Source: a virus
Lineage: Duplodnaviria; Caudoviricetes
Direction: 5' to 3' (one strand)
Length of the DNA stretch: 60,179 nt
IMG/VR virus record: IMGVR_UViG_3300031857_000191
Location: 1 to 60,179 of that record
How positions within the stretch are numbered: position 1 is the first letter of the stretch; each line of letters begins with the position of its first letter. The notes under the pieces are model-generated. The model was not told the origin of the DNA, made no database searches, and was given only the letters and a program-made list of their open reading frames with translations. This document shows positions 6,865-10,842 of this stretch, in pieces. The position numbers and the translations under genes were made by a program.

Positions 6865-6870
6865 CATTTG

Positions 6871-7311
6871 TGGAGATGACGGGAGTCGAACCCGTGTCTT
6901 GTTAAGTATTCATAATACCAACGTTTCACATGCTTAGATCTGATAAATCTGATCAGTAGGGGCAAACCAGTTATGGTCGACTTCCACCACTTGATTTTAT
7001 GACTATCAAGAAAACAATTTGTAAGGCTGGGGCGATGTAGTCATTACTCTGCTTTCACACCCATCACTCCTAAAGAGCTGTCAGTATCAGAGTACCTTAC
7101 TAGCTTGTAACTTCTGTTCCTAGGATGTTACACCCGATGCTAATTAAGCAGCTAATGCGTACTCGTTCGCGCCTACGAATGACATTAAGTCTTCGAAGGT
7201 CATGGTTGACATTTCGTCGTTTATTGGTTTGTAGCTTTCTAAGGCGACACTACCGAACGCCTGCATGTGGTACTATCAATCGCATAGCAATCAAATACCA
7301 AAAACATCCCC
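6871..7311 (-). ncRNA. ssrA: tmRNA
   Basis: 5' GGGGATG pairs with 3' CATCTCC-A including the G3:U wobble; T-arm ACGGG-TTCGACT-CCCGT; internal reading frame 7218..7144 ends ANEYALAA-stop. Confidence 0.93.
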
Positions 7312-7367: not shown

Positions 7368-7520
7368 TTACTTAGCAGAATCAACAGTAGATACAGTTGT
7401 ATCAACAGTCACAGTTGAATCAGTAGATACAGTTGTTGAATCAGTAGCAACTACATCAGTAGAAGCATTACCGCAAGCAGTTAAAGCAGCGATAGCGAAA
7501 ATAGCGATTAATTTTCTCAT
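7368..7520 (-). CDS. 50-aa Asp/Ser/Thr-rich lipoprotein (below ORF-track cutoff)
   Basis: MRKLIAIFAIAALTAC-GNASTDVVATDSTTVSTDSTVTVDTTVSTVDSAK; lipobox LTAC; ATATTTAT motif upstream and terminator downstream. Confidence 0.8.
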   Translation of the reverse strand: MRKLIAIFAIAALTACGNASTDVVATDSTTVSTDSTVTVDTTVSTVDSAK

Positions 7521-7553
7521 GTTTGTTTTTTTTGTTTATAATAAATATTATTG

Positions 7554-7639
7554 TGCCTCAGGCGAGAATCGAACTCGCACTCGCGTTGCGGCGAACAAGA
7601 TTTTAAGTCTTGCGTGTCTACCTATTTCACCACCAAGGC
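7554..7639 (-). tRNA. tRNA-Leu(TAA)
   Basis: Cloverleaf with CAAGA-CT-TAA-AA-TCTTG anticodon arm and long variable arm; CCA not encoded. Confidence 0.93.
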
Positions 7640-7660
7640 ATTATCTGTTATCTTATAATA

Positions 7661-7918
7661 TTAGAGAATATCATCATTAGATAGATTAATCTCTATTTTA
7701 TTTTTATTTCGTCTCACTTCTTCAGCTTCTTTGTAAAGCCTTATCCAAGTTAAACTAACATCAACTATAGCTAATACAGGTGCTAAAAATAGAACCATAA
7801 TCGCGTCTAATCCTGGTGCTGAGTCTAGTCCACCACCTCTTAAATTAGTTGCATTATAGCGTTTTACTAATTGATAAAAACAATAAATAACACTTACTAC
7901 ATAAATTGTCCAAAACAT
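7661..7918 (-). CDS. Small membrane protein
   Basis: Two hydrophobic segments; preceded by a TTTG-N20-TATATTTA promoter. Confidence 0.6.
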   Translation of the reverse strand: MFWTIYVVSVIYCFYQLVKRYNATNLRGGGLDSAPGLDAIMVLFLAPVLAIVDVSLTWIRLYKEAEEVRRNKNKIEINLSNDDIL

Positions 7919-7939
7919 TTCTTTATTTTTTAATTATAT

Positions 7940-7971
7940 TAAATATAATATCTTTTTTTTGGGTCATCAAA
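7940..7971 (-). promoter_or_regulatory. Bacteroidota sigmaA-type promoter (-33/-7)
   Basis: TTTG-N20-TATATTTA, close to the known TTTG-N19-21-TAnnTTTG consensus. Confidence 0.7.
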
Positions 7972-7987
7972 TTTATTTAACCCATTG

Positions 7988-8058
7988 TTGCCCCTCAAGG
8001 ATTCGAACCTCAACAAACAGTACCAAAAACTGTCGTACTACCGTTATACTAAAGGGCA
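7988..8058 (-). tRNA. tRNA-Gln(TTG)
   Basis: ACAGT-TT-TTG-GT-ACTGT anticodon arm; GGTTCGAATCC T-arm. Confidence 0.92.
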
Positions 8059-8063
8059 ATAAG

Positions 8064-8137
8064 CTCTCTCTCTTGGACTTGAACCAAGGACCCTCTGATT
8101 AACAGTCAGATGCTCTAACCAACTGAGCTAAGAAAGA
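8064..8137 (-). tRNA. tRNA-Asn(GTT)
   Basis: TAGCTCAGTTGGTTAGAGC D-arm; TCTGA-CT-GTT-AA-TCAGA anticodon arm. Confidence 0.93.
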
Positions 8138-8142
8138 GTATG

Positions 8143-8230
8143 CGGAAGCTCAGGGATTCGAACCCCAGAATCGCTCATCACGATTGCTTGTTTTCAAGAC
8201 AAGTCCGTTCAACCACTCCGGCAAGCTTCC
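8143..8230 (-). tRNA. tRNA-Ser(TGA)
   Basis: CTTGT-CT-TGA-AA-ACAAG anticodon arm, long variable arm, G discriminator. Confidence 0.93.
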
Positions 8231-8234
8231 GTTT

Positions 8235-8307
8235 TGAAGTAGGTCACTGGAAACCTTATAACTGATATATCAGCTTATGGGTTAAGTACTCCTCTTATGC
8301 TACTTCA
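8235..8307 (-). ncRNA. Unidentified structured RNA unit C1 (73 nt)
   Basis: 8-bp closing stem TGAAGTAG/CTACTTCA enclosing a long hairpin; ends 4 nt before tRNA-Ser. Confidence 0.55.
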
Positions 8308-8322
8308 TCGTACTCCAATTTG

Positions 8323-8423
8323 CAGTCAGGACAGGATTTGAACCTGTACGTCTCTTATTTTACAGTTGATTAATGAGACTACTCAACTAAGGTTAATAGC
8401 GTCTATCATTCCGCCACCTGACT
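8323..8423 (-). ncRNA. tRNA-like RNA A (Leu-type scaffold, non-canonical anticodon and variable regions)
   Basis: Acceptor AGTCAGG/CCTGACT, D-arm TGGCGGAATGATAGACGC, T-arm ACAGG-TTCAAAT-CCTGT; no clean 5-bp/7-nt anticodon arm. Confidence 0.75.
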
Positions 8424-8424
8424 A

Positions 8425-8539
8425 TGTGAAGAGCTTTACAATTAAGTTGGTACTCTTCGTGATAGGGATGCTATCTTCGCCCTAAACCATCATTCGTGAG
8501 GTCTGTGTCCTCCAACGATACTCATCAGTTCTCTTCACA
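8425..8539 (-). ncRNA. Unidentified structured RNA unit C2 (115 nt)
   Basis: 9-bp closing stem TGTGAAGAG/CTCTTCACA; internal GAGG/CCTC and TAGGG/CCCTA hairpins. Confidence 0.55.
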
Positions 8540-8557
8540 GCAATAGATGAGAGGCTG

Positions 8558-8700
8558 TAGTCAGGACAGGATTTGAACCTGTAATACTTGCACATGCTAT
8601 GCCCAAGGCTTCTAATCGTGATAGCGACTCATTAAACTACAAGCATGTATATGTCTAATATCTACTAAAACTAAGCGTCTACCAATTCCGCCACCTGACT
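8558..8700 (-). ncRNA. tRNA-like RNA B (same scaffold as A with a longer, different insert)
   Basis: Acceptor and T arms identical to A; D-arm TGGCGGAATTGGTAGACGC; insert of about 90 nt with a TACATGCT/AGCATGTG stem. Confidence 0.75.
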
Positions 8701-8704
8701 ATAT

Positions 8705-8801
8705 GGATGAGGTTTAGTTGGCCGACTAAACAATGTTACTATTAGCTGCACCACGAGTTACACGTGGCTGACGGGTGCTCCGCTTTCATATACTCTCATC
8801 C
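8705..8801 (-). ncRNA. Unidentified structured RNA unit C3 (97 nt)
   Basis: 7-bp closing stem GGATGAG/CTCATCC; internal GCAC..CACG/CGTG-GTGC and GTTTAGT/ACTAAAC hairpins. Confidence 0.55.
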
Positions 8802-8804
8802 TTG

Positions 8805-8877
8805 ATCCAGAAACAAGAATCGAACTTGCGACCTACTGATTACAAATCAGTTGCTCTACCTGCTGAGCTATTCTGGA
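8805..8877 (-). tRNA. tRNA-Thr(TGT)
   Basis: ACTGA-TT-TGT-AA-TCAGT anticodon arm; TCCAGAA/TTCTGGA acceptor stem. Confidence 0.92.
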
Positions 8878-8880
8878 ATA

Positions 8881-8971
8881 TAGTAAAGAATCTGACTCGT
8901 GAAACACCAGATAGTACTTAATTTTGTTTTCTCACATTTTAAGTGGTCACCTATGGATGTAGTCTTTACTA
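8881..8971 (-). ncRNA. Unidentified structured RNA unit C4 (91 nt)
   Basis: 9-bp closing stem TAGTAAAGA/TCTTTACTA; ends 3 nt before tRNA-Thr. Confidence 0.5.
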
Positions 8972-8979
8972 ATTTATTT

Positions 8980-9079
8980 TAGGAAAGTAGAAGATGGGTG
9001 CGTGGACATCTACTTTTACGATTGGCGTTACTTTGGTTTATACCTCCTCACCTTTTTTAAGGGATTCCCAATCAACCTA
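8980..9079 (-). ncRNA. Unidentified structured RNA unit C5 (100 nt)
   Basis: TAGG/CCTA closing pairs, GATTGG/CCAATC stem, AAAGTAG..GATG/CATC..CTACTTT hairpin; starts 4 nt after tRNA-Glu. Confidence 0.55.
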
Positions 9080-9083
9080 TTTG

Positions 9084-9155
9084 TACTCTCAACGAGAATC
9101 GAACTCGTATTACCAGGATGAAAACCTGAGGTCCTAACCGTTAGACGATGAGAGC
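9084..9155 (-). tRNA. tRNA-Glu(TTC)
   Basis: TCGTCTAACGGTTAGGAC D-arm; TCAGG-TT-TTC-AT-CCTGG anticodon arm. Confidence 0.92.
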
Positions 9156-9174
9156 AACCTTAGTATGATTAAAT

Positions 9175-10842
9175 TTAGAATCCTAATCCTGGATTGCCAA
9201 ATTCATCTTCTTTCTTATCTTTAGTTGGTTCCTCATAAATAACTGTTTCAGTTGTTAATATAGTACCAGCTACAGCAGCTGCATTTTCAATTGCTAAACG
9301 AGTTACTTTAGTTGGATCTAAAATACCAGCATCAAGCATATTAACAAATGTTTCTGTTTTTAAATCAAATCCTTTCCATGTATTATCATATATCTCAGTA
9401 TTTGGATCTAATGATATTCTATCTAATTCATACATATAATACTCTGGATTTTGATAACCGGCGTTAATTAATATCTGAGTAAATGGAGATGATAGAGCAT
9501 TGAAAACAATTTTTTTACCTGTTTTAAAATCATTGCTTTCATCTTTACTAAATGTAATAGCATTTCTAGCATACAATAAAGCAGCGCCTCCACCTGGTAA
9601 TATACCTTCTTCATTAGCAGCACGAGTAGCGAATAAAGCATCTTCAACTCTATCCTTATACTCTTTCATATCAATTTCATTCACACCGCCAACATTAATA
9701 ATAGCTACACCACCAATTAATTTACCTAATCTTTCTTGTAATTTTTCTTTTTCAAAGAATGATTGTGCTTTATCAATTTGATCTTTAATCTCATTAGCTC
9801 TTATATCAATATCAGCCTCAGATCCTTTACCATCAATAACTGTTGTTTTATCTTTAGTTATTGTCACTGTTCTAGCTTGACCCAAGTAAGATGATAATTG
9901 AGATGGTTGTATTTTATCTAATTTTAATCCTTTTTCTTTAGATATCACTTGACCACCTGTCACAATAGCTAAATCTTCTAAAATTAGAGTTTTACGCTCA
10001 CCAAAGTCAGGAGCTTTAACAGCTACTACTTTAACAATACCTCTCATTTTATTAACAATAAGTGTCGCTAATGCTTCACCATCAATATCTTCAGCTACAA
10101 TCAATAATGATTTATTCTCACTATTTACTTTTTGTAACACATTTAATAATTCAGCGGCAGCAGTGATACGACCATCATAAATTAATACAAATGGATCTTC
10201 AAGTACAGCTTGCATTGTATTATTGTTAGTCACAAAGTAAGGTGATTTATAACCTCTATCAAACTGAATACCTTCAACTACTTCAAGTGTTGTTTCACCT
10301 GTTTTACTTTCTTCAATAGCAACAACTCCATCACGACCTACTTTTTCAATAGCAGTGGCAATTAAATTACCTGTTGACTCATCATTATTAGCTGAGATAG
10401 TAGCTACTTGTTTTAGTTGTTCTTCAGATGAAATATCTTTACTATTTTCTTTTAATGCTGTTACTACTTGTTTAACAGCAGCATCAATACCTTTTTTAAT
10501 TTCAACCGCGTTAGCACCTTCACCTACTTTATTTAAACCTTCTTTAATTAAAGCATAAGCTAACAATGTAGTAGTGGTTGTACCATCACCTGCTGTATTA
10601 GCAGCTTTAATAGCTGATTGTTTAATTACTTCAGCACCAATATTTTCAATTGGATCTTTTAAAGTGATTGATTTTGCTACTGTTACTCCGTCTTTAGTAG
10701 ACACAGGTAACTCATTTTGTTTTTCGATAATAACATTACGACCAAATGGACCTAATGTTGACACAACTGCTTTAGATAACTTTTTAGCACCTTCAGCTAA
10801 TTTCTGTCTCGCGTCGTTATTATATTCAATTATTTTACTCAT
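9175..10842 (-). CDS. groEL: Chaperonin GroEL
   Basis: TLGPFGRNV, TKDGVTVAK, AGDGTTT, FDRGYKSPYF, KAPDFGE, EKLQERL, PGGG motifs. Confidence 0.97.
   Translation of the reverse strand: MSKIIEYNNDARQKLAEGAKKLSKAVVSTLGPFGRNVIIEKQNELPVSTKDGVTVAKSITLKDPIENIGAEVIKQSAIKAANTAGDGTTTTTLLAYALIKEGLNKVGEGANAVEIKKGIDAAVKQVVTALKENSKDISSEEQLKQVATISANNDESTGNLIATAIEKVGRDGVVAIEESKTGETTLEVVEGIQFDRGYKSPYFVTNNNTMQAVLEDPFVLIYDGRITAAAELLNVLQKVNSENKSLLIVAEDIDGEALATLIVNKMRGIVKVVAVKAPDFGERKTLILEDLAIVTGGQVISKEKGLKLDKIQPSQLSSYLGQARTVTITKDKTTVIDGKGSEADIDIRANEIKDQIDKAQSFFEKEKLQERLGKLIGGVAIINVGGVNEIDMKEYKDRVEDALFATRAANEEGILPGGGAALLYARNAITFSKDESNDFKTGKKIVFNALSSPFTQILINAGYQNPEYYMYELDRISLDPNTEIYDNTWKGFDLKTETFVNMLDAGILDPTKVTRLAIENAAAVAGTILTTETVIYEEPTKDKKEDEFGNPGLGF

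Follow-up and report, generated by a model that had tools for sequence, protein, structure and literature searches.

Where transfer RNA (tRNA) genes punctuate a transcript, as in mitochondria and with plant t-elements, processing of the flanking tRNAs sets the ends of the RNAs that lie between them, and in phage T4 ribonuclease (RNase) BN/Z acts on the tRNAs that lack CCA. The T4 tRNA operon also contains two small stable RNAs, species 1 and 2 (rnaC and rnaD), which lie on the tRNA strand directly after tRNA-Arg (annotation of AF158101). Excerpts of PMC12286853 and PMC5737381 describe GOLLD and ROOL as phage or prophage RNAs that are ‘often near tRNA islands’, and excerpts of PMC10879173 describe theta ribozymes, similar to that of hepatitis delta virus (HDV), which adjoin CCA-less phage tRNAs and for which a role in 3' trailer processing is proposed. 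Here we report on the IMG/VR virus record IMGVR_UViG_3300031857_000191 (60,179 bases, hereafter the window), in which a tRNA operon on the minus strand is tiled with five RNA units, C1 to C5, alongside two tRNA-like elements, A and B. C1-C5 are genuine structured RNAs and not chance folds, and they constitute new RNA families in a niche already known from T4 rnaC/rnaD, GOLLD/ROOL and the theta ribozymes. We favour, at a probability of roughly 0.6, the reading that they are independent accessory structured-RNA genes, carried as cassettes in a phage tRNA operon.

Five structured RNAs in the gaps of a tRNA operon

A first-pass annotation made from the window sequence had proposed the transcription order Glu-C5-C4-Thr-C3-B-C2-A-C1-Ser, with spacers of 1-18 nucleotides (nt) and units free of open reading frames (ORFs). 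ARAGORN, Rfam and the sequence itself bear out this order on the minus strand, the shortest spacer being that from C2 to A (1 nt) and the longest that from B to C2 (18 nt), and there is no ORF of >=50 amino acids (aa) on either strand of 7919-9174. The unit ends pair as had been described, with 7-9 perfect pairs in C1-C4 and 3-4 base pairs in C5; perfect terminal helices of the observed length arose in 77/3000 shuffles for C3, 5/3000 for C2, 21/3000 for C1 and 12/3000 for C4. The recurrent words that had been pointed out are also enriched in the 852 nt examined, with GAG[TC]AC present 4 times against 0.36 in shuffles and [AG]GT[AG]AC 4 times against 0.89 (0.0125); the word GAGTA occurs 6 times against 1.11 +/- 1.05 in 2000 shuffles (fraction reaching the count, 0.0005). 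As the first-pass annotation had supposed, the units match no known RNA family: at gathering scores only 6 tRNAs and the transfer-messenger RNA (tmRNA) of the window match Rfam, a scan at E<=10 over 7400-9300 returns nothing in C1-C5, including the tRNA family RF00005 (threshold >=29 bits), and ARAGORN run with relaxed thresholds and introns calls no minus-strand tRNA within them. We found no published description of these units in the literature searched; excerpts of PMC10690425 report 8,495 candidate structured RNAs from IMG/VR, which may include C5 or others without naming them. Homologues and covariation had been suggested as a check, and all five units proved to have homologues and to show compensatory changes, in C4 at one pair.

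C5 is a common family in uncultured phages that has no Rfam match, also when the minimal C5 locus is scanned at E<=10. The collected loci, all on uncultured phage contigs, hold at least 135 copies (103 unique, 77-164 nt), and an exact-pattern scan of IMG/VR gave at least 119 stretches. The window copy is built from P1, (U)AGG/CCU(A), P2, UGAUUGG/CCAAUCG with a variable apical domain, and P3, AAAAGUAGAUG...CAUCUUCUACUUU with the loop UCCACGCACC. Across the family P1 is AGG/CCU and P2 is UGAUUGG/CCAAUCR, the apical domain of P2 ranges from a 17-nt loop to about 100 nt, and the P3 loop is conserved. When the 103 sequences are aligned (A3), 98.5% of cells are paired compared with 95.3% in shuffles and at most 61% with slid partners, and the covariation score of 0.118 (0.053 in shuffles) was reached by 0/500 shuffles. 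P3 pair 143-167 is UA in 40 sequences, GC in 33, CG in 24 and UG in 2, and P2 pair 9-133 is UA in 88, CG in 7 and UG in 4. Twenty-four columns of this alignment belong to the search pattern and so cannot vary; the pattern put no constraint on the 5' strand or on the 3' CCAUCUUCUNCUUUCCU, and both are nonetheless nearly invariant.

The placement of C5 follows tRNA genes without being tied to a particular one. A tRNA lies within 3 kb of 104/135 copies, and these tRNAs, 643 in total, share the strand of C5 without exception; the other 31 copies have no tRNA within that distance. In 45 copies an upstream tRNA lies within 15 nt (Trp 20, Glu 11, Lys 5, others), with gaps mostly of 2-6 nt, and in 49 copies a downstream tRNA does so (Tyr 24, Thr 12, Val 5, others). 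Since the preceding tRNA may be Trp, Glu, Lys, Ser or Asp, C5 is not bound to one neighbour. At six loci (L182, L202, L206, L231, L247 and L254; L numbers denote collected loci) two C5 copies of different subtypes stand in tandem a few nt apart. A blastn search of 50,697 GenBank phage records found no match to C5 at E<=0.01, and the C5 core occurs twice in 185,579 bacterial species genomes, both times on small contigs of metagenome-assembled genomes, and therefore gives no clue to the host.

C1 combines covarying helices with nearly invariant loops. Its leader folds into the hairpin AUUG-GAGUA-CGAU, the loop of which pairs with a UACUU bulge in the main rod to form a loop-bulge kissing helix. 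In the alignment of four sequences (A5; the window, L166, L167 and L263), L263 preserves this kissing helix by a compensatory change (loop GAGCA, bulge UGCUU). Both sides have changed in 11 of the 30 C1 pairs, 97.5% of cells are paired (slid controls <=42.5%), and the covariation score of 0.422, against 0.193, was reached by 0/500 shuffles. Across three contigs 63 of 98 columns are invariant, yet six of the seven closing pairs covary. The element that precedes C1 differs from locus to locus, being tRNA-Met in L166 and L167, a tRNA 3' end of uncalled type in L263, and the tRNA-like A in the window.

C2 is closed by the helix UGUGAAGAG/CUCUUCACA (8531-8539 with 8425-8433). Its leader CUCAUC (8546-8551) pairs with GAUGAG (8521-8526), just inside the closing helix, which makes a pseudoknot. 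L168 is identical to the window over unit and leader, and L289 and L290 represent one variant, in which the pseudoknot is kept by a compensatory change (CUCGUC with GACGAG). The alignment of these two distinct sequences (A6) has three compensatory pairs, one in the leader pseudoknot and two in hairpin 1, and one mismatch. In four of four loci C2 is flanked by two tRNA-like elements of the AGUCAGG type. A hammerhead, whose CUGANGA core leads directly into stem II and on to GAAA, stem III and a UH cleavage site, was suggested by CUGAUGAG in C2 and rejected: what follows CUGAUGAG is not stem II with GAAA after it, the hairpin and GAA have nine conserved nucleotides (GUUUAGGGC) between them, a G-C stands where the 15.1-16.1 pair would be, Rfam gives no match, and CUGAUGAG instead pairs with the leader with compensatory change.

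C3 has an internal helix, GCACCCG/CG-GGUGC, and a 3' arm, GUUUAGU-CGGCCA-ACUAAAC, that is stacked beside the closing helix. Ten copies are known including that of the window (nine others in IMG/VR), and seven sequences enter the alignment (A7), where 3 of 21 pairs are compensatory, one each in the closing helix, the internal helix and the 3' arm, and where the outermost pair is A.C in two sequences. An alternative cloverleaf model of C3 gave a poorer fit, with inner helices 81-92% paired. C4 is known in five copies (window, L089, L082, L278 and L281), four of them nearly identical; it directly follows C5 in 4/5 loci, and L082 breaks one pair of a small hairpin predicted within it.

The tRNA-like scaffolds, the gene neighbourhood and the relatives

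A and B, by way of correction, are not ordinary tRNAs: they are tRNA-Leu-like scaffolds with hypervariable cores and no anticodon arm. The two have the same 5' end over 26 nt (acceptor strand and Leu-type D arm) and the same 3' end over 25 nt (canonical T arm and second acceptor strand), and the Rfam scan at E<=10 gives the 3' half of A a tRNA match of 19 bits (E=1). A regular expression run over the collected loci retrieves 59 elements of this type (48 unique, 77-158 nt), in which a constant frame, made up of the acceptor AGUCAGG/CCUGACU, the D arm GCGG-AAUUGGUAGA-CGC and the T arm, encloses a hypervariable core of 25-105 nt. Several can occur in one array, with nhmmer matches to B numbering at least six in L194 and at least seven in L256, and with further cases in L168, L243 and others. 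The family thus looks like a natural tRNA scaffold bearing variable cargo. When introns were allowed, ARAGORN proposed an intron-containing tRNA (8322-8700) composed of the 5' half of B and the 3' half of A, which we regard as an artefact of the ends that A and B have in common; lacking an anticodon arm, they are not tRNAs with introns. Similar to the tRNA-like domain of tmRNA and to the Y-RNA-like YrlA RNAs, A and B keep acceptor, T and D features of tRNA and have the anticodon region replaced. YrlA, however, scores 21 bits here (threshold 69) and does so on true tRNAs, and the A/B cores are hypervariable, not conserved.

The window has a CheckV completeness estimate of 37 and a G+C content of about 31%. 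Pfam applied to 10 of its proteins finds replication and nucleotide-metabolism domains, among them a family-B DNA polymerase, a ribonucleotide reductase and a DnaB-like helicase, and no RNA-related domain. The GroEL-like ORF is followed on the minus strand by tRNA-Glu, Thr, Ser, Asn and Gln, a small ORF, tRNA-Leu and the tmRNA (Table 1), and CCA is not encoded in the array tRNAs, as read from the sequence. The small ORF between tRNA-Gln and tRNA-Leu encodes 85 aa (7661-7918, minus strand) and is preceded by a promoter-like site (7970-7942); small hydrophobic ORFs resembling it occupy the same position in L002, L008, L009, L082, L164 and L168. The phage-encoded tmRNA (6870-7311, minus strand) specifies the short tag ANEYALAA, and those of relatives specify tags of 23-27 residues, for example DEMSTMTFDDLMSFVGANEYALAA.

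Table 1. Positions in the window of the units, tRNA-like elements and neighbouring features
Feature	Position	Strand	Description
C1 with leader	8236..8322	minus	unit 8236-8306, leader 8307-8322; closing helix GAAGUAG/CUACUUC
A	8323..8423	minus	family of B; 51-nt core, discriminator G
C2 with leader	8425..8557	minus	unit 8425-8539, 18-nt leader 8540-8557; hairpins 1 and 2 inside
B	8558..8700	minus	acceptor AGUCAGG/CCUGACU, Leu-type D arm, canonical T arm, ~90-nt non-tRNA core, discriminator A
C3	8705..8801	minus	junction RNA; closing helix GGAUGAG/CUCAUCC
tRNA-Thr(UGU)	8804..8877	minus	ARAGORN and Rfam
C4	8882..8970	minus	cloverleaf-like; closed by AGUAAAGA/UCUUUACU; separated from C5 by a 10-nt A/U spacer
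C5	8979-9079	minus	three-way junction RNA; closing helix UAGG/CCUA
tRNA-Glu(UUC)	9083..9155	minus	first gene of the array; ARAGORN and Rfam; discriminator A, then CAAAU
tRNA-Ser(UGA)	8142..8230	minus	ARAGORN and Rfam; followed by Asn, then Gln
Candidate sigma-70-like promoter	9172..9200	minus	TTGGCA-17-TAAATT, in the 3' end of the GroEL-like ORF, just upstream of tRNA-Glu
GroEL-like ORF	10842-9175	minus	precedes the tRNA array

Searches anchored on GroEL confirmed 249 of 257 candidate stretches in IMG/VR, from which 80 loci were taken, and gave 435 relatives in metagenomes, which supplied another 80. Close relatives have in common the layout GroEL-tRNA array-Leu-tmRNA; the content of the array is very variable. 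Against these 160 loci blastn and nhmmer recovered only C5, C4 and A/B-like elements, and C3, C1 and C2 were located by exact-pattern scans of IMG/VR, the C4 scan giving only L278 and L281, already known from nhmmer. Searching the enlarged locus set with nhmmer added C1 in L263, C3 in L205 and L215, and C4 in L278 and L281. When the 2-kb region was compared with cultured phages by blastn, only the tRNAs matched. Enrichment of motifs across 168 de-duplicated inter-tRNA gaps is uninformative (dominated by C5), because the loci were collected with C5.

The units turn over as cassettes. The Thr-C3-B-C2-A block is syntenic in the window and L168. L082, whose GroEL is 99% identical, has no Thr-C3-B-C2-A-C1 block and carries the array Glu-C5-C6-C4-tRNA-like-Ser-unit-Gln. 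C6 is another closed unit, at 5890-5985 of L082 between C5 and C4, with a 10-bp closing helix AGAGGGUAGG/CCUACCUUCU, and further unmatched units in L004, L088, L163 and L168 extend the set beyond the five of the window. A unit of about 80 nt (AUCAGCAGGGGAUUUGUAAACCCC...) stands alone after C5 in L168 (locus ~265-345), and in L164 (8641-8803), L175 and L181 it sits inside the P2 tip of C5, so modules can insert into one another. Complementary stretches between C1 and C4 (9 nt, perfect, in the C1 bulge; 8282-8290 with 8913-8921), C3 and C4 (22 nt, 73%; 8737-8758 with 8895-8916) and A and B (13 nt, 85%; 8365-8377 with 8628-8640) were considered and set aside, being near chance frequency in 852 nt by our estimate and not conserved in relatives.

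Two further RNAs were observed in the collected loci. GOLLD lies between the tRNA array and tRNA-Leu/tmRNA in the relatives L007 (6031-6450, 261.5 bits) and L087 (5045-5468, 249.4 bits), and the window has no match to it (RF02032, >=150 bits). A conserved tRNA-like RNA of about 156 nt, absent from the window, lies just upstream of tRNA-Leu(UAA) in L002, L008 (6957-7120), L009, L006, L164, L168, L170, L181, L222 and L258; its D loop carries an inserted hairpin, its variable region is very long, and its anticodon-like arm, CCCAC-UCGUCUC-GUGGG, shows a compensatory change to CCCUC/GAGGG in L168.

Release, function and rival explanations

The first-pass interpretation is supported in part. The tight tiling of the units between CCA-less tRNAs makes release by processing of the flanking tRNAs a reasonable inference, with T4 rnaC/rnaD as precedent. 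On this model one transcript of the tRNA strand would include the units, its probable promoter lying where the GroEL-like gene ends; the candidate there is a consensus match alone, in a region whose count of such sites is at shuffle expectation (8 versus 7.9), and we found no internal terminator-like site between Glu and Gln. Every slot would be filled by a single fold with paired ends. Wherever a tRNA or tRNA-like element lies downstream, RNase P would cut at its 5' end, and an RNase Z/BN-type enzyme (or RNase E) would cut after the discriminator of each upstream CCA-less tRNA. These cuts would release compact small RNAs with 1-5 nt tails, whose paired ends would protect and stabilise them, similar to the T4 species 1 and 2 RNAs, and whose near-invariant loops and junctions could act in trans on a partner; candidates for such parts are the C1 GAGUA loop kissing UACUU, the pseudoknot leader of C2, and the P3 loop and AGWAA/GRA internal loop of C5. 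Loops that do not vary, alongside helices that covary, speak for a particular tertiary fold or partner rather than a passive spacer.

Contigs from RNA libraries are compatible with transcription of the units and say nothing on processing. Contigs from three libraries (three studies) cover C1 and A (8248-8422), C2 (8409-8557, 8397-8585 and 8397-8512), C3 (8706-8824), C4 (8854-8970 and 8881-9003) and C5 (9005-9078). Parts left uncovered, including the flanking ORFs, are unusable as evidence; we disregarded a loose contig end with adapter letters at 9003, as it coincides with a break in DNA contigs; and the C3 variant of the X16 contig is not independent because it is the same variant as in L164.

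Several observations weigh against the reading of C1-C5 as independent accessory RNA genes. Single-sequence folding energies are unexceptional (z -0.24 to -2.05), and the case for structured RNAs therefore rests on the closing helices and the comparative data. Within those data, the invariance of most of the C5 3' core is ascertainment, since the search pattern fixed it; the closing helix of C2 has one mismatch and a 2-nt bulge in the L289 variant, and with two sequences the C2 shuffle test is weak (54/500 shuffles match the score); and C4 has a single compensatory pair, CAC/GUG to CAU/AUG in L082, and a closing helix that does not vary among copies. The RNA-library evidence consists of contigs, which may derive from DNA, and some of them bridge the A/C1 and B/C2/A junctions. 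As C5 and C4 have no tRNA between them, they cannot be parted by tRNA processing alone and may stay joined through their 10-nt A/U-rich linker or be cut there by RNase E. Close relatives without units show that the units are dispensable.

A bolder version, which we put forward tentatively and consider rather unlikely, would have the tRNA islands of freshwater phages carry an uncatalogued set of modular RNA machines, with C5 (possibly also C1 and C2) representing new classes that act on tRNA or the translation apparatus and A/B serving as natural scaffolds with hypervariable cargo. Their roles may include that of a new self-cleaving ribozyme trimming the trailers of CCA-less tRNAs, docking at the tRNA elbow via GURA/AGUA loops, or acting as a decoy for tRNA-directed defence nucleases.

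The first of these roles can also be taken as a full account, in which one or more of the units, C5 above all, would be self-cleaving ribozymes of an undescribed class and would either remove the 3' trailer from the CCA-less tRNA upstream or cut themselves free, as proposed for the theta ribozymes. C5 is small (77 nt in its minimal form) with many near-invariant unpaired nucleotides, the tRNAs carry no encoded CCA, and the 2-6 nt by which C5 follows its upstream tRNA, in most of the 45/135 copies that have one close by, resembles the +/-5 nt placement given for theta ribozymes in excerpts of PMC10879173. However, neither the window region nor the minimal C5 locus matches hammerhead, HDV, twister, pistol, hatchet or hairpin ribozymes at E<=10; the AGG of C5, partner of the 3' CCU, lies upstream of P2 in a topology unlike the nested HDV pseudoknot; the hammerhead-like CUGAUGAG of C2 is engaged with the leader, as described above; and a downstream tRNA is equally close to C5 in 49 copies, with no tRNA near 31. 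We regard this account as unlikely.

We consider it quite unlikely that the units, whether structural spacers acting in cis or tRNA genes in decay, insulate neighbouring tRNAs and have no function of their own. They do occupy exactly the slots of tRNAs, C3 and C4 are cloverleaf-like with a 3' arm adjoining the closing helix, and unit presence varies among close relatives. Yet C1-C5 have no similarity to tRNA detectable by Rfam at E<=10 or by ARAGORN, interior loops are more conserved than helices (as in the invariant columns and covarying closing pairs of C1), and a given unit is met with next to different tRNAs and in settings unrelated to one another. Moreover, the collected loci contain 254 same-strand tRNA pairs that are at most 10 nt apart, so spacers are not needed.

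The first-pass annotation had itself named decoys for defence proteins, beside aptamers and ribozymes, as possible roles; that the units serve as decoys or sponges and bind host defence proteins or proteins that target tRNA is, on present evidence, improbable to a similar degree. Cassettes that change quickly between near-identical phages, arrays holding several paralogous tRNA-like scaffolds (as in L194 and L256) and tandem C5 pairs would all fit arms-race genes, and A/B keep the acceptor, D and T arms that many tRNA-directed enzymes read; but C1-C5 themselves are unlike tRNA, and nothing in the window ties the units to a defence system.

It is very unlikely that C1-C5, A and B form the domains of a single large composite RNA, a modular counterpart of GOLLD/ROOL that works unprocessed. 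GOLLD does occur at this place in relatives, its linker can include tRNAs (excerpts of PMC12286853), and the Thr-C3-B-C2-A synteny, the constant setting of C2 between two tRNA-like elements, the C5-C4 adjacency, the bridged junctions and the C4/C1 and C3/C4 complementarities fit it, but these complementarities are at about chance level, the units recur singly (C1 after tRNA-Met, C5 between many tRNA pairs), and the embedded tRNA-like elements retain all features needed for RNase P and RNase Z cuts.

Comparison with known phage RNAs

Taking C1-C5 as accessory RNA genes, the locus has some practical consequences. As an annotation rule, a gap of 40-450 nt in a phage tRNA array probably marks an RNA gene, and the units, at 70-130 nt, are small candidates for biochemical tests of cleavage, ligand binding and protein binding. 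To our knowledge T4 species 1 and 2, GOLLD and ROOL are all still without an assigned function, and the comparative material assembled here may shed light on the reasons for which phages add RNAs other than tRNAs to these operons.

Similar to the RNAs released by tRNA punctuation, the units lie between tRNAs, but there the released RNAs are mRNAs or rRNAs and here they are small non-coding folds. The theta-like placement, about 5 nt from a tRNA 3' end, is shared by C5; however, C5 is a three-way junction whose 5' AGG pairs with its 3' end, the P1/P2/P3 junction that its alignment supports appears to differ from the HDV nested double pseudoknot, in which P1 starts at the cleavage site and J4/2 holds a catalytic C, and our loci come from freshwater whereas the theta ribozymes come from the gut. 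In contrast to GOLLD and ROOL, at 400-800 nt, the units are 70-130 nt long and each recurs alone. They share with T4 rnaC/rnaD a place inside a phage tRNA operon, on the same strand and abutting a tRNA, and even the T-arm-like hairpin of rnaC has its like in A and B, as rnaD without such a hairpin has in C1-C5. nhmmer at E<=10 finds no sequence homology to rnaC or rnaD in the window region or in 284 loci, the folds differ, and here there are at least five families per array, together with cassette turnover. Families are swapped between near-identical phages, and one with at least 135 copies has no Rfam entry. The niche is thus much richer than the T4 and GOLLD/ROOL examples, holding several unrelated, covariation-supported families at the spacing of tRNA genes.

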